A stretch of 64,000 nt of DNA from assembly GCA_973895155.1 (NCBI GenBank), contig OZ316899.1, forward strand, positions 4,095,241 to 4,159,240. The letters run 5' to 3'. Below the pieces are notes generated by a model, which worked only from the letters and a program-made list of their open reading frames with translations, was not told the origin of the DNA and ran no database searches. Positions 15,612 through 63,716 of this stretch are shown piece after piece; position 1 is the first letter of the stretch; each line of letters opens with the position of its first letter. This stretch comes from Marsupella aquatica (Eukaryota; Plantae; Marchantiophyta). A program made the position numbers and the translations under genes.

Positions 15612-15807
15612 ATCTACGCGATTCTCGTGTGGAATAGGTTATCGTCAGATTTCCATACGCTGCAATGCATCGTAATTGATGTTACGCTCTTGCATTGACT
15701 TTATGATATTGATGTTCATTTATTGTTTCGTCACTCTGCAGATATTGTAACATACGATATGGCAACTATTATACAAAACACCATTCCTCGTAAACTGCTC
15801 GTACTTG

Positions 15808-29310: not shown

Positions 29311-29324
29311 AAGTGCTATGTATT

Positions 29325-32302: not shown

Positions 32303-32955
32303 AATAGAACATGGGACAACGGAAACGGATAGCAAACAACAGCCACAGACACGGACACCGGACACGGATAGCGGACATGGACAACGGACATGGACACCAT
32401 ACAAGGATAGCAGATAGTGGACAACAGCCACAGATAATGGCTACGGATAGCGAACACGGACAACGGACACGGACATTGGACACGGACAGCGACCACGGAT
32501 AGCAGACAATAGACAGTGGACACGAATAGCAACTTAGCCCAAGGCCACGGGTTAGCTATGTAACTCAGGTTAGCCTAGTAGTTTATACCCCTTCTCAATT
32601 GCGGGGGCATAACTTTCTCTATATTTGCCCAAATTGGAAAGAGGATCTCAAGCCGCTTCCAACGTTGCTATCCACATGGCAGATGGTTGAATAGAGAAAT
32701 CATGAGAGGAGGTGCAAGCTCGCAAAAACTGTGAAGGAGGACCAAATCTGAAATACATAGTCAATTTGAGATAGAAATAAAGCTACGAGTTAGGGTTCAG
32801 TAGTTAGAGATAGTGACGACTCTGTTAGGGCTGGGATGGGGGTCCAATATCCACCCATTTGGGCTCAATATGAGAGTATATAGAGCAGCCCCCTGGTAGA
32901 GGCAAGGGGGGGGGACTTCACTTGTGTGATCTCAAGTAAACTAAGCAGTAGGGAG

Positions 32956-33299
32956 GAGGTATTTACAAAAGACAGCAAAATAGGAAACATGAGTTAATAA
33001 AAAAAACTGGTAACAGGAAAATGGGCGAGAACAAAATTTGAATTTTTTTTGCAATTTTTTTTTGCAATTTTTTTTTTGGTCGACCAGTTTCTTTTGCTAG
33101 CGCTCGGCCCTACTAATAGTAGCGTCCAAAGCTAGCCAAAAATGTTGCATAGTTAATTTTTTCTAAAAATGATATGTTTTAGGAGACATTTTTAAATCGT
33201 CATTTGTACTGGTAACAATGATTTTTTGCTAGTAACAACATATTAAAAACAAGAAAAAAAGTTCTTATTTACCTGTTTCCTGTCTCCGTCACTATACCC
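32956..33299. mobile_element. MITE of the GGGG-terminal Mutator-like family (no TSD; adjacent ~270-bp deletion of LTR A)
   Basis: Ends gaggtatttacaaa / tataccc are homologous to MITE 51963-52293 in inverted orientation; internal tagcgc-tcg-gcccta at 33098. Confidence 0.75.
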
Positions 33300-34699
33300 A
33301 TTGAGGGGCAACAGGAGGAGCATTTACAGTTTAGTCTGGCAAGGCTACGTGATCCATGGGGAGTCCTGGCCTTTGTCTGGTAGAGAGCACTAAGGGATTT
33401 ACGGTCAGAGCTAAGCTTGTAGGGCAAGCATGAGGCCAGGCCTCATTGCAGTCTGGGGTAGATCGCCATTAGGCCTGGCACCAGCTTTGAAGTTGAGTCA
33501 ACTGTGCATGTGTAACTTGACATTTTGAAAAGGAGGTGTGAGATCTGTATGTCCCCCAAGAATGAATTGCAATGAAAGAGGTTGAGTTCAGGATTGAGTT
33601 TGCAAGGCAAGTACGGGGTTGGTTTGAGTCCAATCTGCCATTGCAATCTAGAGTGAGCTGGGCTTAGGTTTGGGATTGAGCTTGCATGGCAAGCACGGGA
33701 TTGAGCAAGCATGGCAAGCACGTCACAATCTGGAGTAGACACCCTTTGGGCCTATTGTTTGGATCAAGTGTTCTCAATGAACTATTGTGCACATCTTTGA
33801 ATCTAATTGAGTTTTCCTCTCAGACCTCATTAATTTCTCTCCTAGATGTGTGTGTGTGAGGCAATTTGAGTGTATGATGGGACTAGTAGCGCCACTAAGA
33901 GGTGTACCACATGCATTGAAGTGGGTTGGGTGAGGGCTGTCATAGCTCTGATTGCTGAAAGTGGAATGGCAAAGTAGTGGAGCAATGGCTTAGAAGTCAC
34001 TAAGCCAGGAATCAGTACTCCTGGTTTATGGGTACATTCCAGCGGCAAAATAGAAACATACCTATGGCAGTAAGCATACGTATAGACATATGCGCACCGT
34101 AGCGCTAGGCTCTGTGTGTATGGGACCGATATGAAGGCCCCTTTTCACCAGAACTGTCATGAGCGCAGGATCTGATCCCAAACCTTGGTTCCTTGGGATT
34201 GAGCTTGGGTGATGTGTGATAGAGTCTTGCTATGATAGTCTGGCATTAAGGGCATAAACTGGTGTTTACCAGCCTTCATAGCATCCCTTTGTGATCCTTA
34301 GGTACCAGGAGATGGTTTTGGCACCCAATAGTGATGTTTTCGGTGTTAAGACCCAAGTCAATTGCGTGACAATAAACAACTAAAGAAGACTCAATTTCTT
34401 CATGAAGATGCTCCCTTGTAAGCATTATAGTTGCAATTAGACTCTATGTTGTACTCTGAGGATGCAAAGCAATCCTCTACCCAATATATGTGATTCTCCC
34501 TATCAATCCAATTGGCCCAATCCTCTTTGAGTCTCTTGCGCTTGGAGATGGTCATGCACTGATTCTACTTGGTTTGGTCAGGAGCTTTGGCTAAACCCTA
34601 AACCCTCAACCTTAGTATCAGAAAGCACAACAGAAGGAGTTTGCACCAACATGGAGGATGAGCCAACTGATGGCTCACCAAGAACTCTCATTCTTGCCC

Positions 34700-36859: not shown

Positions 36860-37700
36860 CCGCATTTGTTAAGCTAATCCCAAGCTGATAATCCAACTCA
36901 AACAATTCAAATCCATCATTACTTGATCAAGGACCTGGCGACATGAGCTCTTTGACATAGGGGCAACTACATTGGTGCCTGTCAAAAATCTCATAGCACG
37001 CTCCCTTTCATTAACAATAGGCTCCACTAACTACTGTAGAGCTATGTCCCACACAAGTCCTGGGCCACCTGCTCCAAATGCATATGCGGTAGAATGGCTA
37101 ACAAAAGTGGGTAATGCACAACTTGGGCACCCAACTACATTAACCATTGCCACTGGAGGTTTTTCAGGTTGCGTCAAATCTTGTGCATGATACCAAGGCT
37201 GTTGAGCAAGGGATGCTACCAAATGCGTGCTTCAACACCTCACATGGTAAAAACATTGTCCACCATAAGCGTGGATGATGTGCACAAGAACCCACACGTG
37301 TAACATCCAATAACATAGCAAGTCCAATCCATGACCTGACTTGATGAACACTAGCAACAATTTGATGACGATCATCATCCAACAATGGCACATTCTCCAA
37401 AATATAGGCATCTAGGAGAATGTGTCTGATGCAAAACCCATAACATCTCCCAAAATAATGCAGATCATGAAGTCTATGTCCCACTCTAGCTCTAGATTGT
37501 CCCTGACATGGCCAACCAGCAATCACCAAATCAATGGGGCCAACATGATGCAAAAGATCGACCCCCAATAATAAAATATCAGTAGGTAGTGCATGTTGAT
37601 AGCCATGAACAACATCCATTGGCAACAACTATGGATAACAATCCACCAACATAGCCACATGATGCAATGAGACCCTCCGTGGTATCGCATCTCTCTCCAC
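36860..37700 (-). pseudogene. C5-cytosine DNA methyltransferase domain upstream of Gypsy RT
   Basis: IDLVIAGWPCQGQS (motif IV, catalytic PC), YILENV (VI), AHHPRLWW (VIII), EP..NERERAM (IX) and RQVLDQVMMDLNCL (X); motif I lost at a junction near 37705. Confidence 0.88.
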
Positions 37701-37759
37701 TAATGTCATTCATGGTAGTAGGGTTTTACCTTACAAACGCACTGAGGCTGAAACAACTG

Positions 37760-38947
37760 AAGAGACAAAAGATCATGGGTTCTCTGGGATGTGGTGGATG
37801 TCCAAAGTAGAAACAGTTGCTCAAAGAAGGATGTGGGTGGACGATATTGTAATGGAACGGAGTTTTGTTGTAATGTCTTTGTCAGCTAAAGTTTCTAAAA
37901 CTACTTTAACTATGTCCAACGGTCAAACTAAATGACAAAGTTGGTCAAACTATACATTGGTTCAAATCAAACCAATATGGTTGCCACTGGGACTACCACT
38001 ATGCCTCAAGCAAAGGTAGTGATTGATAATAAAACCCTTAGCAAGGACCATGTAGGGATTGATGTGAAAGATGATGTGGAATCCCCTTACTTTCCCAGCA
38101 TCCACAAGGGAGTAATTACTTTGGTTTGGTGACAAATTGATTAAAAAAAAACTAGTTGCAAATGAGAAATTTATGTCGGACATTTTGGTGGAAGGTTCAA
38201 AGAGGATGGATTTAGTGGATAGGGTTGATCTCTATCCAAATGTACATGATTGGGGAATACTGTGCACAAGGCCATACAATTTCAACAAGAGGAGTCAAGT
38301 ACATCCAATTGAAAAGAAGAGGTGGTTAATTGTCGAAAACCAAGGCAATTTCAACAAGAATGAAAGCTTCAATTAATGACATTGAAAACAAATGTTGCAA
38401 GCAGAAATATTGTCTAACTATGCCAACGAGATGACATAGAAGATATCAGGATAGAATTTCATGGGATGTCTAGCGAGTCAAAAACATATTTTCAACCTCT
38501 TTCACTATAGAGAAGATGATGTTTGTGATAAGGGAGTCCACCATGTTCTCAAGGGTATGGTTGTATGTAGACATGCATTTGCAATCATCCATGGTTTTAA
38601 CCACACAAAATATTATGATTACAAAATGAGACATGTGAGGGGTTGCAAAATTGGGTTCCATGGGAACATAGGCTCAATGAAAATAGGGGCAAATGCCTTG
38701 CATGTGCAAGGTTTGTTGGAAGACCTTTGACTCAAAATGTGGAGCCCATGCCTCATACGCCTTATGCAAGGGCTCATGGGATAAACTATATTAAGTATCA
38801 CCTTCTGGCGTGTTACAAGAAACTTGAGATTTTGGAAGATGTCAGAATAAAGATGAAGAAAGAAGGGTTTCCTCCAGTCACAGAGAATACTCTATACAAG
38901 ATTTGGAGCAAATCACTCACAAACTCTAATTTTTTATAAAGATGGCA
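37760..38947 (+). pseudogene. Sola-like transposase copy 2, fragment 1 (N-terminal)
   Basis: KDHVGIDV, VCRHAFAIIHGF..GCKIGFHGNIGSMK and EPMPH..NTLYKIWSK align with the 6546-8289 peptides. Confidence 0.85.
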
Positions 38948-39431
38948 TGTGAGATAAGGATGTTTATGAAAGAAGGGTTAACTAACCATAAATTTTAGAA
39001 TTTTTACGTTTAAGATCTCAAATGAGGCTGAAGAGGGACCTGAAGACTACTTTGAAGTGGTATGAGACTTTCAAGCCCATCTGAGGTCAACCCGGATTGA
39101 TATTAGAGAAGGAGGATCGACCCGGAACTTTTTACTATAAGCCGTGATGAGATATAAAAGCTTATACCGCGACTCTACTGAACAACAGCTGTCCATTGCC
39201 AAAGTTTTTAAAACCATAAGTCAAACACAAGCACGACCACAGCAGAATCCGGATATAAGGAAGTAGAGTCGATCCGGCCTCTCACACCTCTCAAAGCCAA
39301 ACTTAGTAGGTTTTGAGCTCTCGAGCGCATTAGGCTGTTTCAGCAGTAGAGTGAGGAAGCTCTACCCTTTTGGTAGAGGATCTTGGGTCCGGATTATAGG
39401 ACCAATCTTGCATTGCATGATGAGAGCCTGG

Positions 39432-40511: not shown

Positions 40512-42011
40512 TCATCTTCTAGGGCGGCGTCTTCTGATGTTTTGGATGAAATAATCGTTTTTTGGTAATTTTGAATGAAGTGATTCTTTGTCTCTTAAAG
40601 GCTGAGGGAATTCCTTCTTGAGCTTCCAAAATTGGAGCAAGTGGGATGAGCGTTTAAGCTTCTTGAGAGAAACCGGTGTTGGGCTCAGGGTGTCTAGATG
40701 GGAGCGCTTCAGTGTCTTCTTTCTGGGAACCAGTGGCTCTGATAAGTTTTGAACAGCTTCCATCTGAATAACCTCTGTACTTGGCTCCTCCTCTTTTTTT
40801 GGTTACTCTTCCGAGCTGATGCCACAATCGCTCGTTCCAATTTCTCGATGCTGAACCCAAAATTGCCTCCAATCTGCTGAATTCTCTCAAAGACTGTAGG
40901 TGCAGGCAACTTACAAAAATTAACAAGATTTAGCTGCAAGTCACCTAAGAGTACCTTACTCTCTGCAAGAACAATTGCTTGTCGTGCATGTGCCCGCAAA
41001 TCAAAGTTGATCGACGTGGTTGGGTTGGCTGGAACAAACTGAACTGGAATGCTGACATCAATCTCAATGTCTCCAGCCAACAGATGGGAAAGGTGTCCAT
41101 CTAGGGCATCTAAATAAACTTTAGAAAGACTCTTCTCCTCACTCCGCCAACCTTCCGAAGTCAAGGCGACCAACTGAAGACGATCTTCTGCAAAAAGCAA
41201 AATTTGGTCCGCCATTTTTGCCAAAGTCTCGAGCGATTGCTGAATAGTAGGCAGGACTGAGCTCTGAACCGCTTCTCTGAGCTTTTTCTCAAGCTCTTTC
41301 TTTTTTGTCTCCATGTTCATCTTGATTCGCTATGCATCAGCTTGTTTGGTCTTCATTGATTCTATCTCATTGAGGTCTTCTTTTTAACAATGAAAATTCT
41401 GCATGAGCTCCTCAATCAGGCTAGTGTTTAGAGCATTAGCTCTACAAAAATCGTCCATGGCTCCTTGCAACTTAATTGTGACCAACTGATGGCGTAGCAC
41501 TCGTTTCAAAATTCCTTCCTTCTCAGCAATCGCCTCAGATGTCTCTTCATCAGAATCAGTTGCTTCATCACTAGAAGGCTGATCTTCAATGAGTGAACGG
41601 TTTTTCACCTTAGCAATCCGTACCTTAGTTTGAATTTTGGCCCTTAAGCCTCTTAAATTGTTTTCCCTCTTTTTGAGAGAGTTCATGTCCTCTTTAATTT
41701 GAGCTTTTCATATTCTAGACCTACTGAGACTAGATTGGGGAACTAAAAAAATTCAAAATTTCTATAACTATTCTTATTCTAACATTAAAATATAGTCATG
41801 TTCATCCGCTATCAAATACTCTTAATTGACTTGACCAACAAATTGGACCAACTGGTACATTGGTCTTCCTCTCAATTTCCAGCTTCTCCATCTCCCTTTC
41901 CATCTTTTCTCTCATTGATTTGACTAAGGCAGATGGGGCACTATTAATTAGAAAATGAATAACCATAAATGTCAAGGGTGAGCCAAACTGTGGTGAGTCC
42001 TCCATACTCAC
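40512..42011 (-). CDS. Internal ORFs of the Athila-like element (coiled-coil rich, unknown function)
   Basis: ORFs 41802-42011, 41384-41686, 40709-41320 and 40512-40763; no gag or pol motif recognised. Confidence 0.45.
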
Positions 42012-45874: not shown

Positions 45875-47162
45875 GCTGATACTGAGATTCCTGCCTTTAC
45901 TACCAGATCTTTCTCTCCTAGTCCTCATGAAGGAGTCTATTCCACTGGCCCCTCATCACCCCTCAACCCTCCTGGTTTCCCCACTCCCAGTACACACTTC
46001 CACTCCAATTCTTACACTTATTCTCATGACCCAAGTGCCCATAAGGAGAACATGGATATTGACCCGTCCATCCCTTTTACCACTGGCCAGCAGGGAGTTT
46101 TCCTTCGACCAGAACCCCTTGCCATGGCTAACCCTGAGGAGGTTCCTTCCCAAAAGCTAGGACCATAATAGAGTTATATTTAGAGAGTTAGAGCCACATT
46201 AGTTTAGACTTAGAAATAGCTATATAGACTAGTATATGAGTAAGTAGACTCAAGTATTTTGTTGGTGTATCCATTGGAGACTCTACTCCATTTTTGACTA
46301 GGATAGTTCACTTTTATTTACATATTTCTTTAGACTTGGGTTTTGAAGAGGCATGTCTTTTCATAATCTCCACTTTTAGTACAAAAGGAGGAGAACCCAA
46401 AGTCAACCCCGGGAGAGAGAGATGCATTTGATTTCCCCATTTTGATTTTGGAGAAATCTATGTATTTTCTTCCCTTCTTTTTACCATGGTTAAGTAAAGA
46501 GAAGTTTCAAGATTAGCAACCCTTTGAGTTGTTGTGCAATATTCAATGAATACTAGCGTGTGCCTATGATGATATTGGAAGATCGGCAAGGTCTGTGACC
46601 AATTCATATAGAAGATTCACCAAAGAGAAATTGGAATTTACGTGAAACTCAAATAAGCAATCTTAAGGATAGTAGGAGAAGTAAACCAATTCGAGTATCC
46701 TAGTACCGTCTTAAGCAAGACCAGAAAAGTGTCCCGGGTTGATTTACATTGTTGTCTTCTAAATTCAAGAGATGGAGAAGAGTTGCTATGAGAAATCAAA
46801 AAGCATATACAATGTTGATTTCCGAATCTTAAATTAGGCCATAATCCTTATTGAAGGAGTGGTGATGGTCGGAATTCAATTTCCTTGCGCTTTGAAACCT
46901 CCTACCTACTCTCTCTAGTTTTTGATCTTTGTTAATTCTAGCGTTTATTTCCGCACTGTGAATCCTGTGGATTACCCACTTGAGTTTGTGGTTAAACACT
47001 TATGTTAAGGAGATCATTAGAAATCTCTCCAACCTAAGAATGTTGGTGTAAACTTCTCAAATTGTGTTAATTCAGTCTTTTCGATCTTATCCACTCCTAA
47101 TGGGAACGAAATCGAGTTATTAAGGAGTAAATAGTCATTTATCTCTTTATCACCTTGCTACA

Positions 47163-47549
47163 TGGCACATTTGTCAAGTGTACTCTTTATTGTGAATACA
47201 AAGATAGTTTGATGTCAAAAAGAAGGAAAACAGAACATGCTGAAATTGAAGACAAATAAGGGCAACATCTCTTTGAGCAAATGTCACATAGATATGTTTA
47301 CTATGCTCATCAAGTGATGGCCAAGCAACATTGAGGAGAATATTTTTGCATTATTCACAACAAGATGGATCAAGCCAAGAGATGAATTCTAAAAATGATC
47401 AGTACTTAAATTGATTTTGGGTCATGGAATGCTGCTACCTACTGCTATCGCAAGGATGTTGATCCGCTACCTACTGCTATCGCAAGGATGTTGATCCACA
47501 AGAGAGATCCAAAAGTTTATGCACACTTCAGTGTCATTGGCCTTTGGCC
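47163..47549 (+). pseudogene. Sola-like transposase copy 2, fragment 2
   Basis: Manual translation FVKCTLYC...IIHNKMDQAK...RDPKVYAHF matches FSKCDLC...IHDKMDQAK...RDPRIYAHF of element 1. Confidence 0.88.
47434..47497 (+). repeat. Perfect 32-bp tandem duplication
   Basis: gctacctactgctatcgcaaggatgttgatcc x2. Confidence 0.95.
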
Positions 47550-49496
47550 AGGGTATGACCATCGTGACAACATATAGTTAATAAATTTGCTGTTACAAGC
47601 AAAATTTGTGCTCGTAACAATAAAAATCTGCTCATACGAGTAATTCATTTACTAATAACAGTAAATCTGTTTACTCATACAAGAAACTATTTACTTGTAT
47701 GAGTTTTCCTTGTTGTTCAAAGTGTTCAAAAAGAGCTCCATGTTTTTATACAACAACCACATTAACATTCACTGGAATGCTAACATAATGGGGCCCACCA
47801 TTCCATCATAAATATCAGACAATATGTAGGTCATTATAAGAAGACGCGTTTATTAAAATGAGAAGAGGTATCCAAGCTTTAGCCCATTTTAGCTAGCGCC
47901 AAGCGCTAGCCATAGGACCTACATATTTTTGGAGAAGAAACGGGTACGTCTTTTGCCCGTTAGAAAAGACAAATTCAATTTAGAGCTGTTCAACATCACC
48001 AAATTGGCTAAATGTCCGTTTCATATTGTCAATTGAGTAGGTAACGGATTTCGCCCAATGTCAGAACTAGTTGACTAGATAATGTAGAATTGTGAAGACT
48101 CAACTTCAACACAGTCCTGAATACCCAATATAGATGTTTGCAAGGCATGTAAGGTTTTGTGTAAATGTGCCGACGGTAAAAATCCTCACATGAACAACAA
48201 GGGAAACAAAAAATCTACACCCAATAAGAGGCTACAGTCCTCTCATGTTCATGTGTTCTAATACAATACTGCTTTCCCCACACATTCCCACTCGTGACAT
48301 CTCTCTGGCATATGAGTCTCATTACTTTTGTTTCAGAAGCTTCAATCTTCTTGTAATGTGTTTGAGTTAGATTCACTCTTTGCAAGCACTTCCTTCCATT
48401 TCTCAAGGGACATCTCAAAATTGGGTCCGCTAAATTGATCCTCTCTTGGAACAAATTCACATCGATGCGTAAGTTGGATGGGGATGACTCCTAAGGAATC
48501 TCCCCTCTCTCCTATCCCAGTTAGTCCTTGTTCTCTCAAGAATTGGATCTTGCCCTTCCTGGAGACTGGTCCCTCTCACAATTGGAAGAACGGGTGGTAC
48601 ATTGGGAATGTTTGAAACCTCTTTGTGGATGACTTTTGTGACATTTATTGTTTGGGAAAAACCATATCTGGTCCGGATGTGGTTCTCCTCTAAAAAATCT
48701 ACATCCTCTCATAGATATTGCGACAACTAGTTCTGGATTTGGAAACCCAATCTTCTTTACTCAATTTTGACATTCATCGCGGCTCCCTCTCCAACCGAGT
48801 GTTCCATTGCAAGCAGGATCAACACCACGTTTTGAAGTTTGTTGAAGCTGCCACACACCTGGATCTATGTCCTCACCCAACCCACTTCAATGCACCCGGT
48901 ACACCTCTTAGTGGCGCTGCTAGTCCCATCATACACTCAGATTGCCTCACACACACACACACACACATCCATGAGAGAAATGAGGTCTGAGAGAAAAACT
49001 CAATTAGATTCAAAGATGTGCACAAAAGTTCACTGAGAACACTTGATCCAAACAATAGGCCGGAAGGCTATCTACTTTAGATTGCAACGTGCTTGCCCTA
49101 CAAGCCCCTGCTCGCCATGCAAGCTCAATCTTGAACCTGAGCCCGACTCACTCCAGATTGCAACGGCAGATTGGACTTGAACCAATCCCGTACTTGCCTT
49201 ACAAACTCAATCCTAAACTCAACCTCCTTCATTGCACTTCATTCTTGGGGGCACATACAGATCTCACACCTCCATTTCAGAATGTCAAGTTACGCATGCA
49301 CACTTGACTCAACTTCAAAGCTGGTACCAGGCCTAACGACGATCTACCCCAGACTGCAATGAGGCCTGGCCTCATGCTTGCCCTGCAAGCTCAGCTCTAG
49401 CCATAAATCCCTTAGTGCTCTCTATCGGACAAAGGCCGGGACTCCCCATGGATCACGTAGCCTTGCCAGACTAAACTGTAAATGCTCCTCTTGCTG

Positions 49497-49823
49497 GAGG
49501 GTTTTCACCGTGACAGCAAATAGATTTACTGTTATGAGCAAAAAAAATCCTGTTTCGAGCAAACATTTACTATTACGAGCAAACTAGACAATCTAAAAAT
49601 GTGTCATTAAAAGTCACAATTTTCAAAATAATTCAAAATACAACAATTTTTTGCTAGTGTAAGGCAATACCACTACTAGCTCTGGGCGCTAGCCAAAAAA
49701 TATTGACTCACAAAAAAAATTTAATATTTTTTTCCCCAAAAACAATTCCCCAAAAAATTTCAAAACTTTTACCACCCGTTTGTTGTTACAAGTAACTGTT
49801 TGCTGTCACGATGGTTATGCCCC
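49497..49823. mobile_element. MITE (327 bp) of the Mutator-like family
   Basis: 8-bp TSD tcttgctg/tcctgttg (2 transitions); ends match the TIRs of 47550-59489; internal tagctc-tgg-gcgcta. Confidence 0.85.
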
Positions 49824-50569
49824 TCCTGTTGCCCCTCAATCAGTATATGAGCTTCCCTAATGTGCTCACCGCAAATCAAATTGAAATTCTCCCCACAGTT
49901 TACAATCACCAACACATCACCTATCACCAAGGCTCTATATCGAGGGAAAAGAACCCAGTTGTGTTGCCTACTAGAAAGAGCCACAATCCAGCTTGCAAAC
50001 CTGGCCAACAGTTGTTGTGAAGCGTGGCTGATTACTCCCTGAGTAATAGCACAACCAAGCTCTCCCCAACACACAACTTCCAAGCCCAGTCTTCCTTGCA
50101 CAGAGCTCCTCCTTGTTGCTCAGTCTACGTGAGATCACACAACTGAAGTCCCCCCCTTGCCTCTACTAGGGGGCTGCTCTATATACTCTCATACTGAGCC
50201 CAAATGGGTGGATACTATGCTGTCGGAGCCCTATCCCAGCCCTAACAGAACCTTCACTATCTCTAACTATTGAACCCTAACTAGCAGCTTTATTTCTATC
50301 TCGAATTGGCTATGTATTTCGGATTTGGCTCTCCTTCACAATTTTTGTGAGCTTGCGCCTCCTCTCACAATTTTTCTATTCAACCATCTTTTGCGTGGAT
50401 AGCAGCGTTGGAAGCGGCTTGAGCTCCTCTTTCCAACGAGGTCAATAATAGCCAATTTGGGCAAATACAGAGAAAATTATGCCCCCTCAACCGAGAAGGG
50501 GTATACACTTCTACGCTAACTCGAGTTACATAGCTAATCCGAGTAGAGCTTACCCGTGGCCTCGGGCTA

Positions 50570-51006
50570 AGTCGCTATCTGTGTCTGTTGTCCATTGTTT
50601 GCTATCCGTGTTTGCTATCCATGTCTGTTGTCCATGTCCGCTATTCGTGTCCGTTGTCCATGTCCACTATCCGTGTCCGCTATCCGTAGCCATTATCCGT
50701 GGCCATTGTCCGCTATCCGCTATCCGTGTCCGGTGTCCGTGTCCGCTATCCGTGGCCATTGTTTGCTATCCGTTATCCGTGTCCGGTGTCCGTGTTTGCT
50801 ATCTGTGGCCGTTGTCCGTGTCCGCTATCCGTGGCCATTGACCGCTATCCGTGTTCGGTGTCCGTGTCCGTGGCCATTGTTCGCTATCCGTGTCCGGTGT
50901 CCGTGTCTGGTGTCCGTGTCCGGTGTCCGTGTTTGCTATCCGTGGCCATTGTCTATGTCCGCTATCTGTGGCCGTTGTCCGCAATCCGTGTTTGTTGTCC
51001 GTGTCC
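50570..51006 (+). repeat. Compound simple repeat (ctatccg / tgtccg / tggccat units)
   Basis: Read directly; related tracts at 20800-20950 and 32310-32530 in copy 2. Confidence 0.9.
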
Positions 51007-51962
51007 AAACAAAGGCACACTTTTGCGGGGTAGCAACAACCATGAGGGACTCCCATATCTCCTTCTTTTCTTCCAAAGACATTTCCTCAATTGAATCCTC
51101 ATAGAGGGCATTGGTTAAAGAGTCGGTCGCTGCATTCTTTATCCCTGTTGGCGTAGCTCATGGATTTGCTTGGCATTCCTTTGCTAGGTGAGTCTTTGCT
51201 ACCTTTTCAACTTCTTTGGACCACACCCGATGACTAGGATGGTTATGAAATCCCATGTGCACAGCCAGCCAAGACATGTGCGCCAAATGTGTTGCATCCA
51301 CTTTGGCTGAAGGATACATATAGAACATCATTGTCGGACACGACCTCGTACACATCCGAGGTTCAGAGCAATGGTGACAGACAATACCACCTTGTGGGAT
51401 AAGTTCTCCAACTCAAAATGGTCCTGAGAGTTTAGGTGTTCTTGCCCAAACCTGGTTGTTCCTAGTCTTCTTGTCTCTCTAGAAATGACAAGAGTTGTTC
51501 AAGCAAACCCGTACACTGAACCTTTCCAAAATCCCACATCTTCTTTGGCAAAACATTCAAAGATGTTTTGACAATGCATGTCCAATAATAGCAATCCTTC
51601 CCGCGGTCCATGTCTTTAAGCTATTCTTTCAAGTTCACGCAATTGACAGGAGACACCTCAAACACAATGTTGTCCTTGTACGTCATCGGTAGCCTTGGAA
51701 CAATCTCATGCGTGAAATCCTTGTCCCTAATGAAACAAGATAACTTGTTGTATCCTTTCAATTTTAGGATAGTGTCCATAGCACTTTGCCGATACACAAC
51801 TGGACCTTCGCAAACCTCCATCTTCATGACCAAGGGATACGCCGGAACCCTTTCAGGGGCCTCTGTTGGAAGGGGTGAATTTCTCCCCTCGCCTTTCGAA
51901 GTGTCCGAGATGTTGACAACATCAACATTACCAAAACCGGCCATGGATCTGCCGATGCTTGA

Positions 51963-52293
51963 GGGGTATGGCGCGCGTGACAGTAAACAGGAAATAGGTT
52001 TATTGGTACCAGGAAAATTTTTCCTGTTACCAGCATAAAGTTACTGTTACCAGGAAAAATAACCATGTCAAAATATTTTCTAAAAAGTCTCATTTTCCAA
52101 AAAAATCTAAGTTATAACATTTGTTGGCTGGCTTTGGGTGCTAGCAAACATAAATAAAATTTTGAAAAAAAACTTTTTTATCTCCCAAAATTATTTTTTT
52201 AAAATTTTTATAAAAAAATTACCACTCACTTTCCTGTTACCAGTTTCTGTTTTCTATTACTATTTGCTGTTTTCTATCGTTTGTAAATACCCC
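51963..52293. mobile_element. MITE (331 bp) inserted in the MULE's own minus-strand gene
   Basis: GGGGTAT..ATACCCC termini; perfect 8-bp TSD ATGCTTGA (51955-51962, 52294-52301). Confidence 0.92.
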
Positions 52294-53238
52294 ATGCTTG
52301 AGTATCTTCCAAAACAAAGACCTCATATACTTTATCTGGGTACATCATCCAAAATCTAAGACCATCAACAACATCGTAGAATATCTCACTTCCCTTCAAA
52401 TTCTTAGGGACAAGAGACACTGAGAGAATAGACTCTTTTACAACATCAAATCTTATCCCCAAGTATTCATTGAAAACCCTTTTTGACTGAGATTTTGTGG
52501 AAACGGTAATTGTGATGATATCCCGCATGTACTTGCGTGTGACAATGATTGCTTGACCCATGTCACCGAAAGAGAATATATAATGGATGCCAAACTCCCC
52601 CTCAATCTATTTATGGCCATTTTGCTCTACCGGGTTGATAACAACATTATAAACGTTAATGATAAAGTAAGATACGTTAAGTGTTTGGACGATGTGTATC
52701 AATTGAGTTTTGTCATTTGTCAACAGCTGGATTGAAGCAACCGGCTGGTCTGAAGTTTAATAGCGCCAGACGCTACTTTTATAGAAGTAGAACAAGTGAA
52801 CAAGGGAAGCGTGAATGTGGACCCCATATAATAGCGCCTGACGCTACTTTAACGGAGGGGAGGCAAATCTGACCTCGGAATAATAGCGCTTGGCGCTATC
52901 AATTATTATCCATAATTTTTAACTCCAACACCCAACAGGACATCCTGGCATCCGTCCAAATACACACGTGTGCATTAAAATTTCCACGCTCACAAGATCT
53001 GAAAATGCACGAACGCATCTGAGGCGTCTATCACATGATTGGAAAAAATTACATCTAGGATGTCCATCCGGGTTTAAAACGTACACATTTCTCTTGCCAA
53101 AACAACGCTGGCAAGATTGCTTGCCTTCATTTGTCATTCTTCACTCTCAGTGATTTTCTTGCGCTCCCGCCTCCGGTTTTTGTCTCAAAAGTGTTCCATT
53201 CTTCACTTGATATTCCAAAGTTCCTTGTTGAAGTTGTC

Positions 53239-56200
53239 ATGGCTCTACCTTAAGCCAAGGGGAAGGAGCAGGTTGTAGTCCTCAGTGACAACGATGGAGA
53301 GACTGTCATAGTGAAGTCTCAAGCTAGGCCTCCCACCCAATCCTCTCAACAATTGTCAGTCCCGATATCGACAAAGTCTCAAGCTAGGCCTCCCACTCAA
53401 TCTTCTCGACAGTTGTTAGTCCCATTATGGGCCAAGGGGAAAGTGATCTCAAAGAGCCAATCTAGTGGAGTCCCACCAGAGGGACCTCTTCACTCAAAAG
53501 TAGCAGTTCAACCCGCCTCCCATAAATCTTTGGTCTCGTCGGCAAAGCTTTCTACTTCGCATCTATCACCTGGACCGCCGACCAGTTCTTCAAGTAAGAG
53601 CAAAGGCAACGACAATGCCTCGGGGACCAATGACAACTTGTTTGCAGTCAAGGAGGGCTTCGCTGGGGTGTTGGTTCAAGCAACTCCAACCACGACTCTG
53701 ACGCTTACAAGCCAAGTTGGTGGGAAGATTGAATGAACACAACGACATCTGTGCCTGCATCAAGCAACCAAATGAAGTAGTCTGTTGTAGACATCCACCA
53801 CCATTTTCTTGCAGTAGCCACTCATTGTAATCGTCACTCTTTTGGTAGTAAGGTAGTGATGGAATGTAGAGGGAGATTTCTCCCCAATTTTTGACAAAGC
53901 TTCAGGTGGACGCTGGGCTGTTTATGTTCTCATTGGAATAACTTATGTCTAATGAATTGGAGTTCAGTGTCGTTTGTTCATCCCTTTTACAAAGTTTGTA
54001 TGAATTAGTGCAGGTTATTGTAAGTTGTATATTATGAGAATTTGTCTCTCACAGGCGCAAAACTGTCAGAAGTCTTCAAAAGGCTTCCAACGATGGCTGT
54101 CGGTGTAAACTCAAACCCTAAACAAGTTTCATAATAGCGCTTGATGCTAGCATTGAAATGCTCAAAAATTATCCTTCCCGTACCCGATTCATTCTCAAAA
54201 TATTATTGGATATGCATGAATTTGGGTGATGCTTGAGTGATGTTTGAGTGAATTTGGGTGATGTTTGAGTGAATTTATGATAGCGTCAAGCGCAAGTATA
54301 ATTTTAAGGATAAATTGTTGCAAATACTATGATTTGCGTCCTCCTTGAGCAAAATCCCTCGTGATTTTGTAAAAACTCATGAGTGATGGATTTGTTAGCG
54401 CTCGGCGCTATTCAAATCACAAGTTTAATTTGATTGATATACAATTCTTTTTTATAGCGCTTGACACTATTAATGAGGTCCAACCGGTCAATGGTCATAT
54501 TTTTAATGGTAACATTCAAGATTATTGGATACGTTGCCAAAATTTGGCGCAATCAATTGTCCAATGAGAATCTGCCAAGTGTTTTGCTCCGTTGGTGTTA
54601 TGGTTAAACACTATTATGGGGTCCTTGGGACTACATCTCTTAACCCTTTGCTGGGACTTTGCGCTTGTGGGAGATATGTAATTTGGCATACCTGCCCCTT
54701 GCAGCAGCCCGTTTGACCGTGACATTCTGTACTTGAGTTTGTTACTCCGCACTGACTCAAGGGCTCAGGGCAAGGCTCAGGAGCGTATGACATTGTCTGA
54801 CGTTCTGATCAACGTCGCCACCATCTCTCTATTGGGTAATACAAGGATGGGAGATAATCATGCCGGTCATTCCGAGTCCTCACAACCCTCTTTTTTAGGC
54901 TCTGTGTACACCCATTGCAAGACTCGATCGGCTGCATCTCAGCCATATTCAGACTTTGGCTCAACTCTTCCAACCGCGCAATCAAGAAGGGGAAGAATGG
55001 ACATAGCAAAGGATGTCGCAGGGTTGATTTCAGTGTTGTTGGACTTTTGATGGACGATTACATCTAGAAGCATGTTTTATCCGTTGGGAAAGATTTCCGG
55101 GGATTGGAGAAGGAGCCTCCATAAATTCCTCTTTGTCAATTGCTTCCTATGGAAATTGTGCGGACATTGTAGAAGTAGAGCGCCTCCATCGACAAGTTGA
55201 AGGAGTCATTCCGGATTTTTGGATACAATTCACAAATGGGAATGCCATTCTACGTTCAGCCAACAAATGTAGATGGGGTTCCACAAATTTGTACTAATGA
55301 GATTCAAGCCTCTTGGGATCCAATCTGGGTGGCCAAGAATGATAAGTTTGAGGAAGAGTGTGACGCTAATCCGGATTTCAAGGTTTTGAAGGACAAGATG
55401 TTTTGTATCTTTGATGGAAATCACCATTTGTATTTGTGGTAGATGTGACAGTAGAGTACCCTAACAACATTAAGTACCACCCTCGTGTGACTTGCATTAT
55501 AATTTCCAATGGAGATAAGGGTTCCTGTGGAGCTCGAGGCTGCCATGGACGCTATTTACCAGTAAGTCTCATTCATGTATTGTTCAGGACAGTCTCATTT
55601 AATCTGACGTACATGTTCACGTCAAGTTTTGATGTGATATTATCTTTGGCATTTTACTAGCGCCTAATGCTACTAATTTCCATGTTAATTTCCACGTAGG
55701 TTGGGACAAGCTGTCGTGGAGCCCTCTTGGATTCTTGATGCAGACAAAATTTCTCAGCTTTTATCGCACGATCTTGAGCACTACAAACCCCTCATTGATG
55801 CTATGAGTTTTGCAAAGTTTGAAGCATTCGAAAGAAGACTCGTAAGGGTTCTTGGTATACACACAAGATGCCACAAGATGCGCTCATCTACATTTTGTGT
55901 GAGAACAAGATTAAATCTAACTTACACAAACCAGTTCAAAGTGGATATGGATTTTGCAGCTGCCTAGGGGACTCCGTGGTCAGAAGAGGAGACGCAGGAT
56001 AGGCATGAAGCTATGATGAAGGAAGCAACAAAATTCTGGGCAATCAAAGTAACAAAGATCACTCCATTACTCCACCCTGATTTTGGTGACTACTTGGGCA
56101 CATGTGCTGAAATGTTTCCCGCGACAGAGAAGAACAAAAGAGAAAAGAAACTTGATATAGTTGTTTGCACTATGGATTGCGCTTGCCTGTTTACTGCAAT

Positions 56201-58860
56201 GACTTATCTTGATCCAAAGTTAAGGTGCACCCTTCTTGTCGCCCATTGTACTCCTGAGATTCGGAAACAGTTCTTCCATCCGGCTAGTGTGAACGACGAT
56301 CCTATAAAATAGTGGTGCGATGCCTGGCATATCTGGAATTTTGTGGAGGAAATTGCTACTGGATTGATCCTTACCTCTCTAGAGTAGGTTTTGGACCGGA
56401 TGCCAGATGATCATCTCACAAAGTCTGGTTGTGACTCCCTGGATGTTCTCATGACGTCCATTATTGAAGAATTCAAAACATTTGGAGATCTTGTGAAGGC
56501 CAAAATTTTCAATATAATGTGACCGTCAAAATTCGCAGGCAAGGAGGACTACACTGAACGGAACCGGAAACAAGCCAAACGATATGTTACCATTTCTATA
56601 TGTGGATGGAGTTGCAATCTCCAGAGGTTTTGTGGGCTTACCCGGGTGCATTTTAAAAGTGGGTGATGATCAAAGATGGTGACCATCTTGTTTGACATGT
56701 ATTTGATAGACCCGGATGAGGAAAAATTTCCACCACGTGCCTTGTCAGAGTGGGAGAGGCTCCACTGCCCATGGTATTTAGACACCGACAGATGCGATCT
56801 GCCTTTTGACAAGGCGGAGAAAGATGCTTTCATGAAGTTGCAAAGTTGCAAATCCCAGCAAGGTATGTCTCGGAGATGAAGCAGGGTCTTGAGATTGAAG
56901 TGGACTCTTAGACAATGGAGTTGTAGAAGAAGTGCAAGACTATGGTCGTGCATGTTGACCATAGCCAAAAGCCAAGAGTGAAGACCAAGAATGAATCTGC
57001 AGCTCCAAGTGAATCAACTTGGTCTCTTAAAAGAAGCAAGTACCCCCGATAGCCCTTAGTTAGCGATTGGCGTTGTTATTCATATGAGAGATTCAGATCC
57101 CTATTGATACTAGCGCCGAGCGCTATTACTACAACCAATTCAATTACTAACATATCTCTATCTTTCAGGGGGAAGAAAGTCGGATGCCACCACTGATGCA
57201 AAGGATGACGCTACTCCTCAAGCATCTGAAGCTAACACTAGTGCGAAAAATACACCAGATCCGGGAACCCCTGGGGAGAGTGAAAAGGCAATGGTTTGTG
57301 TGGATGCCACAAGTATGAAGAAGAAGAAAAAGAGAGGCCCAATTGATGACAGGCTTGGATCTTCTTCTTGTGATTCAATTGCTTCAACCGGATTGCAGAG
57401 AGATGTAGGGAATTTCAAACAAAAGTGCACTCAACATTGTTTTGTCGAGTTGAGTGTTACAAAATGTTTTGATTCCTTGTTTAACAAGGGAGAAAAACCA
57501 GATTGGGTTTCTACTATTGAAGGTTGTGGGAAAGAGCTTGTGAAGTCTGGTGATCAAGCAAAAGGGGTTGTCCAAGGGGGAAAGGAAAGAGGTGCCAAGA
57601 CAATGGATCCTTTCCTGGTAGATGATGGATTGCTGGCAATTTTGCAGAGGGGCGACTATGACCAAGTATGTGAAGTCATTGCAGCTTGCCAAGATTCAAA
57701 GAAATTTCAGTGTATCTTGACACACAATGTTGTGATGGGCACCCCAATGTACAGGCGTCGCTCGGATATTCAGGTACGATAGAGATGTCTCCTCTTTATA
57801 ATAGCGTCGGGCACTACTAAGAGATTTTGGTTTTGTGTTGTCCTTTTGCGAGTGAAGGGGACGCTAGCACCAAGCGCTAGTATCAACATCCTCTCGATGA
57901 AAGGTTTGTGTATTATCCAAGTAGTGTCTGATGTTATACTGATCAAAATGTAATTTATTGTGCAGATTTTTACGCTTACTCTCAATGTTTTTGGACGTGT
58001 TTCGTCCAAAAGGATCCCAAATTTTGGCCCCTTTCACATATAGAGGATCCTTCAATAACCAATCTCATTGGTTTTCCCATTCCCAAAAATGATCCTCTTC
58101 CGGAGCTAGCGTTTGCTGGTGATTCAAGTCTGCCTATGGTTTCATGCAGTCAATTTTAGAATTAACTACCCTTCCTGGGGATATTGTCATGGACTGGATA
58201 GTTGGGGCCGGGAGTACATATATTTGTTGCTGGAGATCATTGTGGGCGATTTGTAGTTGGGATTGAAAATCAGAAGGAGTTTCTTGACATTGCCACAAAA
58301 GTTTTCTTCGGACATCTAGAGAACAAAGAAGCCTCCACGTCCTTGCCTCTACATAGGCAGGTGGGAAGTAAGAAGCATGACAGACTCCATGTTGTTCTTT
58401 ATTTTGATTTTGACAAGGATAATGATGGAGGCAACGATACTCAATAGTCCAAAGATGATGGGGCCTCAAAGAATGTGGTGCACATTGGATCTTCTGAATC
58501 TGATGATAGTGAAGAGTCTTCTGAGTAATGATCTTCAACTTCCCTGTCTATCTTTTAACCTTTTAAGTGTTATGTTAGTGTCTCCAGAATTCCACCATTT
58601 TCCAGGATCCGACTAAAGAAATTGGATTCAACTTGCCAGGTCTGAGTGGAATCTTTGGAAGCACTTTCAATTGCGAAGGAAAGTTGCTAGGAATGTAATA
58701 GAAACCCCGGAGAAGCCATTTGTCCTGCCTTCTTATGTTGAAAAGGCGGCTCAAAAGGCAGATTCTGTTAGAATATTGACTTGGGAAAGTAAAGGCCTCA
58801 GGCTCAAAAGGGGCCCGGATAGACATTGCGCAGAGCAAGTATGTAGACGACAAAGCTAAG
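53239..58860 (+). pseudogene. Multi-exon cargo gene: low-complexity N-terminus, ParB-like domain, beta-class amino-methyltransferase-like domain
   Basis: ATG 53239. VRTL..DKLKESFRIFGY..KMFCIFDGNHH (55413-55427). FMQSILELTTLPGDIVMDWIVGAGST/FVAGDHCGRFVVGIENQKEF (58141-58285, one frameshift). GT-AG introns at 55562-55699, 57040-57168 (tactaac branch) and 57774-57965. Confidence 0.75.
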
Positions 58861-59497
58861 TCTACTGATAGATCACAAAGTAGTGAAGAAGAATAAGAAC
58901 TAGATACAAGTGATTCAAAATCTGATGTCTAGCTATACTTTTAAAATAGTTATTGGATATATGTTATGGCTATTTTACAAATTAGCGCCTGGCGCTATTG
59001 TGAGCACATGTAATTTTGATGGGTGTTTATAATGGGAGACATGTCATGTCCATATTTTTTGTTCAACTCTAACTTCCTTTGGGAAGAGGAGAATCTCAAC
59101 TTGGAACGCATTGTAATTTGGTGATATTTGAATGCGGATGCCCCCCTTCACTATTTTTCATAAATTGACATCACATAGTCTGTAATTGAAGTCTGTTATT
59201 TTAGCTATGTTGTTGAGTTGTATACTAGCACCAGGCGCTAGTATACAAATCTTCTTCGACATACATTGTGCATAGAGATGGGTCGATTTAGATTCTGCTT
59301 TTTGTAGGGCTGTTTAACTACTGTAGTGTTGGGTGCTAGTATCACGACGTGTTTTAAGATATGGGATATTAGAGGTTTCAATGTTATTTTGTGAAAGATG
59401 GAGGTGACCTAGAGGATTGTTTAGAGCATACATTAATTTGCTGTTATGAGCTTTACTGTTTGCTATTTTGCTGTCATGGTGAAAAGCCTCTTTGGCC

Positions 59498-60156
59498 AAG
59501 GGATGCAAATTTTAGGGTGACATCCTTGGCTAAGTGTCTTCAAGATCTTGAAAATTTTAATGGCGACAAGACAAGTGACATGTTGGATGTCATTTCTTGG
59601 ACACCTAATAGACCTTTTTTTCAAGCCCTTCTTAAAAGGATATTTGGAACCAATGAGTATTCCAATGAACAGGTATATTGGTTCTGAAGATACAATTGAG
59701 AATTAGACAGAGATCATCTCCATGCAATGTGATGAGGATCATGGAGGGGACATGCATGGGGAACAAGGCAGTCCATCTTTCAAGCCCTTGCCAATGCACC
59801 TAAATTGCAAATGAATAATTCAGCAAATGATAACAAAATCTAGATTGTCATGGGATTTTGTAGTGAGCTTGTGAGTAGAGGAGTATTTGAAATTGTTCAA
59901 ATGTCTTTTCTAATGGTTGGTCATACGCAAAAAGATGTTGATGAATTGTTTTGAAAGATATCATATCAAGCTCAACACAAGGAAGTTGCAACTCTCCATG
60001 CTCTTATGGTAGAGGTTTGGGAATGTGAGAGCATTCATCCAATTCAAGATCCAATTCCCAAATACAAGAAGTTGCATCTTAAAAATAATATCTTTAAACT
60101 TTCAAGGTGATATTCAAGGTCACTCAAAACCCGTATCATTTTTTTCTCTATGAGAC
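59498..60156 (+). pseudogene. Sola-like transposase copy 2, fragment 3 (catalytic D2 and third acidic residue region)
   Basis: QDLENFNGDKT, LQMNNSANDNK, FCSELVSRGVFEIVQMSFLMVGHTQKDVD and EVWECE match element 1. Confidence 0.88.
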
Positions 60157-63100
60157 TGTCACGTCGTCAGCTTGGGCCTTAACCCGAGCTTTGGCTTAGA
60201 CAGGTACATCCTTTGTTAGTATGAGGATTCGGGCAGGGAGGGATGCGCGGAATGCACCTAACTCCCATAATCTAGCACTAAGTGCGTCTACTGTTACTTA
60301 TGTACACTTCCTATGTATGATTTGTGTTTTTAGCCGCCGGAACATACCTTAGTCAATAGCAGGATTGACCCCGACTTACGGGCTTCTACTGCGAATGTCC
60401 AACTCTGAGACTAAAAATCCCACTGCCTCTACCGAGGGGTGCACTAAATACTAAGGGCTGAGGACCGGAGTGGCCTTGTGCCCGAATATTCACTAACTAA
60501 GATCCTAACTAAGCTGGCTGTCAGGCCATAAAATGGCTTGTCTTATTAGAAGATTCTAATCTACGCAGGCTGGACAGTATGGCAGCGCCGCCTTAACTAG
60601 GGCAGGTGCTTGTCCCTATAGCCTGATTTAGCTACTCCTAACTCTATTTTAATCCTACTCTGCCGCTAATGCATGGCACGCTTGCCAGAGCTGCCCGAGT
60701 GGGAGCGGCTATCCCGCTGCCTCCTGAGTTTGTCGGCGTCCTACTTGAGTGTTGGACCTGGTCCAGCAGAGATTCATTCTCTTGCTTTGCCGCGTCCGTC
60801 TCCTCCGCGGCTTCTTGGCATGCCTCCTCCAGTTGCTGGGCGTCGCTTGTCAGCTTATCTACCAATTGGGCCTGCTTTGTGGCTTCTCCTTGAAGCCGCG
60901 TCACTTCCGCCTTCAGGGCATCAATCTCGGTTGTGTCCCGCTGGGCCTGAGCATTGGCCTCCTCTACATCCTTTTGCCAGCTGACGGCTTGCCCCTTCAA
61001 ACCGTCAATTTGGGTCCGGAGCCGTGCAATCTTGACATCCTTTCCGAACCCGGTCTGCTCTGCTAAGGATGCCCGGGCCCTAGCTTCGGCAACCTGATCC
61101 TCCGTGGCCGTTACCTGAGGTCGCAGTTGTTGGAGTTCAGTCTCAAGGGCCACCACTTAGTCCTTCAAGTGGGCAGACTCAACCTGATACCGCTCTATTC
61201 TCTGCCTAGCCTCAGCCTGCGCATGTCGTGCTTTCATGACCGCAACCAACTCCTGGTTGAAGAAGTAGGCCACCTTTCGGGCCATGTACTCCCTGGTATC
61301 CCTGGCAATTTGTTGAGAGAATCTCCCAACAACCCATACAAAAATGTGCCTAGTGCAAAGAGTTTTGGGTGGTCTAGACTATGCCCCTCTGGATTCGGGC
61401 AAGGACAGACCTCAGCCCGTGCCGGAGTTGGAGTGGAGACATCCAGCCCTTGAGGTCAGTCGGTCAAGGGGGCTGGGTCCACTGGGGCTGGGCGGTTCTC
61501 CTGCACAGCCGTGGGGGGTGGTGGGATCTCCTCGGCCACCGTAGTCTCGGGTTCGGGTCTGGCCTCTGCCAGCCCGACTTCAATCGGTTGACCCGGTTGA
61601 TTGCGTCCAGGGTCACGATAACCGCATCTACGGGTACGCTTGGTGGGGCGGCAGCGGCTGGTTGCGGGGCCGGGGTAGCAGGGCTTGCGGCTGCCAGACT
61701 TTGGGCCTTGGGTTGTGGTTGCCTCTCCTGAGCCGGGAATATCCACTTTGATGGGGTCAGCTCGGGCTCGTTGATACGTGGGAGGCTTTGGTGGTCAAAA
61801 TGGGCGTACCACTCGATGATGATCTTGATGTGGCTGGCAAAGTACGCCTTTCCCCCCAGGTATAAAGTCCTCCTTCTCCACTCCATCTCCTCGTGGAACT
61901 TCTTGACAAAGAAGGACGCTCACTTCCTAGGCCGGTAGTTCTCAACTCGTATGACCTGGGCGGCGGATATTTTGCCCCGTGGTTCCATCATGTGGAGGGC
62001 ATAACGCTGGAACTCCGGGATGAGGCATGTCCTCATCAAGAATCCGTTGTCCACTGCCCCCTTGGCCGAGAAGATAGAGGACTGATATTTGGCTCCCTTG
62101 CCCCTAGGAGCCCGCAACTCTACCCAGTTTATTCCTTTGGGTAGGCCGAAAATCATCTTTAGACGTGCCTCATTGAGACACATCACTCTCCCGTGCGCTC
62201 GGGTTTGTTGGCGGGCTTTTTCAAAGTTCTAAATAAACTCCGTCATATCTTGCCCGTAGTACCTGCTTCCATTCCAAGGGAGAGAGGCGAGGTGCTCAAA
62301 CCCTTGGGTCTTAAGGTAGCATGCATGCTTGGGGTGGAGGATGTTCTTGTGGACATTCTCCCCCATGCGATGCATGGTCAGCTTGGCCACCGCAACTGTG
62401 GCCAAAGGTAGCCCGGATATAGTTGCAGGTTCCTTTCTCTTCCTACCCCGAGACTGATTCCCGGGGTGACTTGAAGAGGGGGACATTTCCCCATCCTCCC
62501 TATCGGGTGCCGGTAGCGCTACCGCCGTAAGTATTGGTGCGGGGGCTGCTACAGTCACCGTGTTATCCCCTTGGGCTTGTTGTATTGGCGCCGGGTTGCT
62601 TGGCGCATGCTGATTTGCACCCGGCGGCCACCGGTTTAGGGGAGGGTGAGCCTCCTCGTCTTCAGAACTAATGTTCAACGCGTTTACCATGGATCGCACT
62701 CGGAGGGGTGGTGCAACCGGTGGTGGAGATCAGCCTGGCTGAGGCCGAGGTGGTGTTGGCGTGGATACTGATGAGTTGGCGCCGGTTGTAGCTGGAGGAG
62801 GCGCCATCAGATTCAGGAAGGTTGCGGGGAGGCCGAGTGAGGTCAAGATAGGTGATCCACCTGTGGATGCGGTACCAAACTGGTAGTCTATGGAGGCCTG
62901 GACTTTGGCGGGGATGTGATTGAAGTGGTGTTGTTGTAAGTCGATCGTGCTCAAGAGTGTGAAGACTTTATCCAGAAGCCAAAGGAGTGCCTCCTGGAAA
63001 CCAACGTACTTTGGACCGTCAAAGAAGTATTTGGATATCTTGTCGGGACGACAGAGGTTGCTCTAGAACGGGAGGCTGAAATCTCCGTTATAGTGAGAGC

Positions 63101-63716
63101 GCCCGGCGAGACGGATGAGTCATTCGTAATGCCTTTCGGTTTTGTATCGATGCGGATTGACCTTGGCTAGTGTCTTCGCTAAATGATTCCCAATGGATAG
63201 AAATTGAAGCCAAAACCAAAGGGCAGAATTGGACATAATAGTGACAGACATATAGGGGAAAGGCGGTGGATGACTAAAGAACAGATGAGTGAGCTGGGAT
63301 TGGAGCTGGCACAACGGGTGAAGTGCTGGTGCTTTGCGAGAGAATGGCCCGCCTTTTATACCCAGGGAGCTCGTCAGCCAAATGGCCCCCTCCTCCTTCT
63401 GATAGGCCGATCCTTTCACGCTTGCAATGTACCAGCCACTCCGCAAGTCCGGGTCAAAGCGTGTCAACGAGCCGCCCCTTTGACTCTTTATACGGACCCA
63501 AGGGGACATCCCTACACGCCCGAAACCCGGAGTCACAAATGGCGCTCTGCCGCCAGCCTGAGCGTAAATGCCCCTTATTAACTAATGATTCCCTAGTCAT
63601 AAGTACTACCTACTTAGTGTCGTTATGCTAATAACTATGGCCTATGGTGCCCCTAATGTGCGTGCTAAGCACGGGCTAGGCCAAATCAGTCATTAACCAT
63701 CATGTTGGCGGCGTCA
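60157..63716 (-). mobile_element. Family B TG..CA unit, copy 2 (3.56 kb), solo-LTR-like with internal ORF
   Basis: Ends tgtcacg / ggcgtca; interrupts the Sola-like frame (FSMR|..NVSIF); no internal LTR duplication; no clean TSD. Confidence 0.8.
60644..62954 (-). pseudogene. Family B accessory ORF (globular domain, Pro-rich linker, coiled coil)
   Basis: Pieces 62730-62954, 62229-62699, 61920-62186, 61464-61886 and 60644-61156; homologous to 82-1941. Confidence 0.7.

Follow-up and report, generated by a model that had tools for sequence, protein, structure and literature searches.

A decayed ParB-methylase-type gene and its surrounding palindromes in the liverwort Marsupella aquatica

Results

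A dead member of a spliced multi-copy gene family

The DNA analysed here (the window) is a stretch of 64,000 nucleotides from the liverwort Marsupella aquatica (assembly GCA_973895155.1, contig OZ316899.1, positions 4,095,241–4,159,240, forward strand), and is on the whole repeat-rich eukaryotic DNA. At about 55090–58830 on its plus strand lies a decayed, spliced gene of the ParB-methylase type, a pseudogene with numerous stops and several frameshifts. The copy is dead, and the gene it derives from is spliced and multi-copy. As a decayed member from a land plant, it belongs to a type of design that has been reported in algae (Ectocarpus, red algae). With some reserve, we favour reading it as an accessory gene of a DNA transposon of non-seed land plants. 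Its intact product would recognise its own element by binding the palindrome TAGCGC-N3-GCGCTA and keep that element active, with a methylase fold that more likely binds S-adenosylmethionine (SAM) or DNA than writes methyl groups.

Three introns (55562–55699, 57040–57168 and 57774–57965) were inferred from GT-AG boundaries together with homology. Neither these nor the stops and frameshifts figured in the original prediction, which placed the gene at 55130–58300. The gene is real but these limits were too narrow, as homology begins at or before 55107 and a weak match to the tail of relatives from the liverwort Riccia reaches 58826 (E = 0.009). The parts of the gene are as follows (HMM, hidden Markov model):

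55092–55561, plus strand: exon, ParB-like N-terminal domain (family HMM, E = 9e-25); three stops, frameshift near 55439; true start further upstream
55413–55427, plus strand: DGNHH, decayed form of the family motif DGNHR; last codon CAT
55562–55699, plus strand: inferred GT-AG intron 1, with a palindrome at 55658
55700–57039, plus strand: exon, central helical domain and conserved W-E-x-x-[HN]-C-P-W-Y block (HMM, E = 6e-68); stops and frameshifts near 55824, 55921 and 56841
57040–57168, plus strand: inferred intron 2, with palindromes at 57061 (3 mismatches) and 57111
57169–57773, plus strand: exon, low-complexity linker and N-terminal half of the methylase fold; inferred loss of about 38 codons near 57591, motif IV included
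57774–57965, plus strand: inferred intron 3, with palindromes at 57802 and 57865
57966–58480, plus strand: exon, C-terminal half of the methylase fold; motif I VMDWIVGAGST at 58186–58218, then GRFVVGIE
58665–58826, plus strand: probable last exon, from the tail match given above

From the ParB part through to motif I, these parts follow the same order as in full-length proteins of Riccia. With Riccia proteins, tblastn matched the ParB part at E-values of 1e-13 to 1e-17, the centre at 3e-11 to 4e-4 and motif I at 0.01–0.05. Because two full-length proteins, P0067 (1,207 residues) and P0074 (1,244 residues), match the window in order over this range, the fusion of ParB and methylase parts is real and old. 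The motif I stretch ELTTLPGDIVMDWIVGAGST ends at 58218 and its continuation AGDHCGRFVVGIE stands in a different frame. This is due to four additional bases at 58218, which are not present in the related contigs (two in sequencing run X1, three in X2).

Relatives in Riccia, metagenomes and the source organism

An exhaustive phmmer search with the central exon yielded 58 matching proteins at an E-value of 0.001 or better. Of the ten that were checked, seven come from Riccia sorocarpa gene models; the other three, ENA or Logan fragments, are the closest of the ten (31–54% identity). The C-terminal part of P0067 retrieved 15 further proteins, all from Riccia. A pattern scan of metagenome contigs gave 151 related stretches, from which 80 loci in 50 clusters were kept. 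These copies are mostly broken; in 19 of the 50 clusters the ParB part is followed by a methylase half, many contigs ending too early, and eight loci seeded the HMM. In run X1, from the source organism, 1,250 contigs fall on 52000–60600 and 928 of these are less than 95% alike, which identifies a multi-copy family. No relatives were found by word-based homologue searches with the central exon and with the methylase-linker exon of the window, nor by the initial metagenome scan and the viral scan. Nothing meaningful came from tblastn of phage and plasmid sequences with the ParB-central protein, and PDB sequence searches with A2, P0068, A7 and A8 gave no significant match.

ParB-like domains

The sequence DGNHH, noted by the original prediction as one step away from a ParB-type DGNHR, is indeed present with the final codon CAT, so that His replaces Arg in the GxxR nucleotide motif found in the relatives. 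Readings of this Arg were made in protein relatives and metagenome clusters, and those of motif IV (below) in Riccia-type proteins and metagenome contigs; both samples lie outside the window's own sister copies. GNHR occurs in 17 of the 20 motif instances among the stored protein relatives and DGNHR in 33 of the 50 metagenome clusters, while DGNHH recurs in three clusters as decay. DGNHR is thus the ancestral form, as proposed, and the loss of the Arg, which most relatives have, is decay.

The domain assignments differ in strength. For the predicted ParB/Srx-type N-terminal domain, ESM comparison gave ParB_N with a score of 0.92 at rank 29, and a prokaryote scan yielded one weak match, over 23 columns, to a ParB-like protein from Lysobacter; in the structure model this domain did not fold. 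The central helical domain weakly resembles ParB-type DNA-binding domains, and Foldseek of its model against viral and PDB libraries returned no match at E = 0.001. A ParB-type DNA-binding domain is predicted, with weak support, in the Riccia relatives.

Two further observations concern ParB-like proteins. For residues 15–200 of P0069, the ParB-like domain, the nearest ESM clusters are fungal DUF3723, a domain that features in papers on Starship elements, and unnamed cnidarian proteins. This hints that DUF3723 is itself ParB-like and belongs to mobile elements. At locus L082 (4638–7149), a ParB-like gene of Lysobacter (WDGNRR) is convergent with a D12-class adenine methylase gene.

The methylase fold and its motif IV

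A beta-class amino-methyltransferase fold has good support from modelling in the Riccia relatives. The model of a Riccia methylase domain (P0068; predicted local distance difference test score, 51) matches CcrM, M1.HpyAVI, M.BceJIV, MboII, N4CMT and PvuII, and by ESM the domain is near phage N6_N4_Mtase clusters. Both the model and profile alignment of P0068 show the permuted Rossmann-type order, with motif IV ahead of motif I, and the methylase pieces of the window map in the same order. The Rossmann-type fold on which the original prediction depended therefore holds for the Riccia relative.

In the window, the SAM-pocket signature (GxG and, past the following strand, an acidic residue) is preserved as DWIVGAGST and GRFVVGIE, the Phe of FxGxG being replaced. 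It is closer to the canonical form than the DFAGGWGAT of Riccia. The motif I piece matches PF01555 (N6_N4_Mtase) at E = 0.0087, which misses the Pfam cut-off, and the DNA methyltransferase family phrog_3008 at E = 0.0011.

No [DSN]PP[YFW] occurs within 55130–58300, as had been stated, and a catalytic (D/N/S)-P-P-(Y/F/W) was found neither in the window copy nor in Riccia-type relatives; SPPY is likewise missing from the motif IV readings of the relatives. The HMM match of the window starts at position 52 of 115, past motif IV, in a stretch some 38 residues short of its Riccia counterpart. One sister contig has 138–139 letters behind 57568, the first 30 of which resemble the window only to about 57590. 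Motif IV was probably lost from the window copy by a deletion of about 38 codons near 57591, which would have left no DPPY to be found. As a candidate for motif IV, DWVS[TN]IEG was dropped after profile alignment.

In Riccia, motif IV could be identified by hhalign, which sets DCLYLDLPTG on DMVFCDLPYG of a cyanophage methylase, the aromatic position being different. A protein pattern with D[LM]P fixed and the next residue free caught 15 proteins: 14 have D[LM]P[TS]G and one has DLPTH, so that the fourth position is aromatic in none of the 15. This aromatic residue stacks on the flipped base. The relatives overall mostly have D-[LMVI]-P-[TSG]. Motif IV was readable in 14 contig clusters, one of which has DIPW. 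In four, a single substitution would turn the codon into TGG, and two of these four are equally a single substitution away from GGA. The remaining nine have GGA, TCC/TCT, GAA or GCT, all of which need at least two substitutions to reach TGG.

These readings bear on whether intact copies might be active N4-cytosine or N6-adenine methyltransferases, guided to the palindromes by their ParB part and writing a mark other than 5-methylcytosine (5mC) on their own element. The near-canonical motif I of the window would fit such an enzyme, as would the widely kept Asp/Asn and Pro of motif IV, and the codons of one distant lineage point to a possible former D[VI]PW; an active writer has also been proposed for Ectocarpus (PMC12477816). 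Against it stand the uniform lack of the aromatic residue in the proteins, the nine clusters with distant codons and the further eroded methylase of the first element of the window (AIVDMTH, DFFTGGQV). We therefore regard an active writer as unlikely and catalysis by the family, judged from these motifs, as doubtful. Since most relatives keep the SAM loop and Asp/Asn-x-Pro without the aromatic residue, the fold is more likely a binder of SAM or DNA. Of the proposed functional ancestor, the Arg and the SAM-pocket signature are supported, nucleotide binding or hydrolysis at the ParB site is a prediction, and a catalytically complete enzyme has become less likely.

Palindromes around the gene

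With up to two mismatches, TAGCGC-N3-GCGCTA has 15 copies in 47000–60200 and three in the other 50.8 kb; 200 shuffles gave a mean of 0.055 and a maximum of 1. As the pattern had been taken from the same region, a blind picking rule was applied as well, which returned 13 sites against one to two in five shuffles. The intragenic palindromes are all (5 of 5, one with 3 mismatches) inside inferred introns. Further sites are:

47894–47908, unstranded: leftmost perfect TAGCGC-N3-GCGCTA, immediately beyond where the head-to-head gene ends (see below)
52761–54469, unstranded: seven palindromes between the divergent genes, at 52761, 52832, 52884, 54135, 54281, 54396 and 54455
58983–59338, unstranded: three palindromes between the ParB-methylase gene and the DUF7869 fragment, at 58983, 59226 and 59324

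The palindrome of the first element in the window is another one, TACACGA-N3-TCGTGTA, whose 11 sites all lie within that element. Of the tiles examined at 24 related loci, 7 of 37 close to the gene but none of 19 distant ones held at least four sites (Mann–Whitney p = 0.004, the tiles not being independent). Regular arrays lie beside related genes at L003:1756–5840, L007:1435–2455 and L022:8700–12770. In L003, which appears young and has an open ParB exon, a 22-bp palindrome stands in 15 copies upstream of the gene with a spacing of about 137 bp. The palindromes seen near ParB-type genes are candidates for their cognate sites.

The palindromes might instead be bound by the transposase or by the SWIM-type protein encoded head-to-head, the ParB-methylase protein aiding transposition in another way, such as DNA bridging. 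Transposases commonly bind internal repeats, copies of the palindrome lie beside the SWIM-like gene and beside the DUF7869 fragment as well, and the ends of the element were not found. We nevertheless think this improbable, as the arrays at related loci occupy the ParB gene itself and the DNA immediately upstream of it (L003, L007 and L022), and in a red alga inverted-repeat arrays adjoin the ParB gene PAG3 (10.1101/2025.02.11.637652).

A repeat of about 2 kb with a 13-bp tandem array occurs in three copies, at 15851–17800, 32300–34327 (minus strand) and 48871–51006. Near-matches to the TAGCGC palindrome are found at 33098, 33120 and 49677, in a segment missing from the first copy.

Neighbouring genes and the element

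The genes on both sides of the ParB-methylase gene are also decayed:

48110–48870, minus strand: head-to-head gene, decayed 3' part, SWIM-like CxC...CxH finger near 48196–48134 (PF04434, E = 0.14, weak)
51006–51800, minus strand: head-to-head gene, 5' part, homologous to the N-terminus of P0051 (36% over 78 residues, E = 3e-8)
59373–60137, plus strand: decayed DUF7869 transposase-like fragment (PF25273, E = 3e-24)

The head-to-head gene is split by the 2.1-kb repeat inserted at 48871–51006; by its sequence it is possibly the remnant of a Mutator-type transposase. Beyond its N-terminus, P0051 consists of the central domain of the ParB-methylase family. DUF7869, which we take to be linked to Sola-type transposons, was not found near the metagenome loci of relatives, and read depth is higher for the fragment than for the ParB-methylase gene; it is likely but not certain that both belong to the same element. 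Either the DUF7869 fragment or the head-to-head gene may be what is left of the element's transposase. The CpG observed/expected ratio is 0.52 in the ParB-methylase gene, 0.66 in the palindrome region, 0.12 in the DUF7869 fragment and 0.49 in a copia element, and used as a proxy for 5mC gives no sign of protection in the window copy. DDE transposase families gave no match in 140 of 163 long stop-free frames (26 loci).

Alternatively, the gene could have arisen by duplication of a domesticated, non-mobile host gene like DN4MT1 and then decayed. It has introns, and neither terminal inverted repeats (no inverted match longer than 15 bp between 46000–53000 and 59900–60600, both sides being interrupted by other repeats) nor a target-site duplication was found. 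The many diverged copies in the source organism and Riccia, the mostly broken metagenome copies, the transposase-like neighbours and the lack of a TSPPY motif make this origin very improbable.

In the first element (4000–15700), a DUF7869 gene on the minus strand stands head-to-head to a ParB/methylase-like gene that has a Ulp1 protease at its end (PF02902, E = 2e-24). The two ParB-methylase-like genes of the window show no significant mutual similarity, and the tree does not place that of the first element (branch length 5.6). Other parts of the window contain an open frame at 40709–41329 (minus strand) with a weak ZSWIM1-3 helical match (E = 0.003), possibly another Mutator-type remnant; an open frame at 37167–37628 (minus strand) with IDLVIAGWPCQG and no Pfam match at E = 0.05, which presumably resembles the catalytic motif of C5 cytosine methyltransferases; decayed frames at 37600–39400 (plus strand), by eye like the N-terminal half of another DUF7869-type transposase, with no Pfam match; and, at 22800–31700 and 60640–63600, a Copia-type gag (PF14223) region and further retroelement-like frames.

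Discussion

In the accessory-gene reading that we favour, the intact protein is predicted to combine a ParB-like nucleotide-binding domain, a ParB-type DNA-binding domain and a beta-class methyltransferase fold. The central domain would read the palindrome as ParB reads parS, and the DGNHR domain would let the protein close on DNA or spread from the palindromes. The promoters of the element would thereby stay active against host silencing, as with VANC for VANDAL, the methylase fold binding SAM or DNA rather than transferring methyl groups. A bolder version, to which we give little credence at present, is that a genuine ParB-parS module resides in land-plant DNA transposons. Its sliding clamp, gated by a nucleotide, would load at the family palindromes and spread over the element, and the fold would write N4-methylcytosine (4mC) or N6-methyladenine (6mA) in D[VI]PW lineages but act as an inactive reader or a shield in those with D[LM]P[TS]G. 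This would be a eukaryotic clamp of the cytidine triphosphate (CTP) type serving self-recognition and anti-silencing.

Our literature searches, which left most subscription papers outside, found no land-plant report of this design. The window copy is itself a fossil, and the new detail it adds is mainly the motif analysis (motif IV, palindromes). If the reading is true, a ParB-palindrome system that extends over liverworts and further non-seed plants would amount to a second route, built independently, offering programmable-looking pairs of protein and palindrome and a further way in which 4mC or 6mA might arise in the genomes of plants. Riccia or Marchantia are organisms in which it can be tested.

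The closest parallel is the accessory gene of Sola1-1_Ec32 in Ectocarpus, described as encoding ParB-like and N4C/N6A methylase domains in 1,104 residues beside a transposase, with a protein proposed to bind and modify its own element (PMC12477816). The fusion near a transposase is shared, the Riccia proteins having about 1,200 residues. In the brown alga the gene is on the strand opposite the Sola transposase, whereas here the DUF7869 fragment is on the same strand and the SWIM-like gene head-to-head. The likeness is one of described domains; the main text of that paper makes no mention of palindromes. In Bostrychia, the Plavaka genes PAG2/PAG3 comprise a transposon-borne ParB-like protein with adjacent inverted-repeat arrays as proposed targets, and the cassette includes a PF01555 methylase (10.1101/2025.02.11.637652). 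In the red alga, however, ParB is fused to a 2-oxoglutarate oxygenase and the methylase to a SET domain, as separate genes of an EnSpm-type element, while the window gene is a single fusion. VANC of the VANDAL elements in Arabidopsis binds a short motif, specific to its family, that occurs in the introns and between the genes of its own element (PMC5735166). The window likewise has a family-specific motif in the non-coding DNA of the element and a different one in the neighbouring element. The motifs of VANC are non-palindromic and tandem, its binding and demethylation were shown by experiment whereas our system is known from sequence, and that account describes no ParB or methylase fold for it.

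With bacterial ParB, KorB and SopB the family shares a GxxR-type motif followed by a weakly matching DNA-binding domain. Its dispersed palindromes of 15–22 bp are comparable to parS sites. It differs from them in the DGNHR form of the motif and a long helical insertion, and no ParA was seen. Fold and motif order are those of CcrM, M1.HpyAVI, M.MboII, PvuII, rotifer N4CMT and phage DLPY-type enzymes; unlike these, it mostly lacks the motif IV aromatic residue, is fused to a ParB-like N-terminus and is encoded by a spliced gene. Marchantia DN4MT1a/b are also prokaryote-type beta-class methylases of a non-seed plant, but they are host genes with TSPPY and demonstrated activity, TSPPY is in none of the relatives here and the DN4MT1 preprint describes no ParB partner (10.1101/2021.02.12.428880). 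ParB-fused methylases are also mentioned for chlorophytes and chytrids (PMC4738411).

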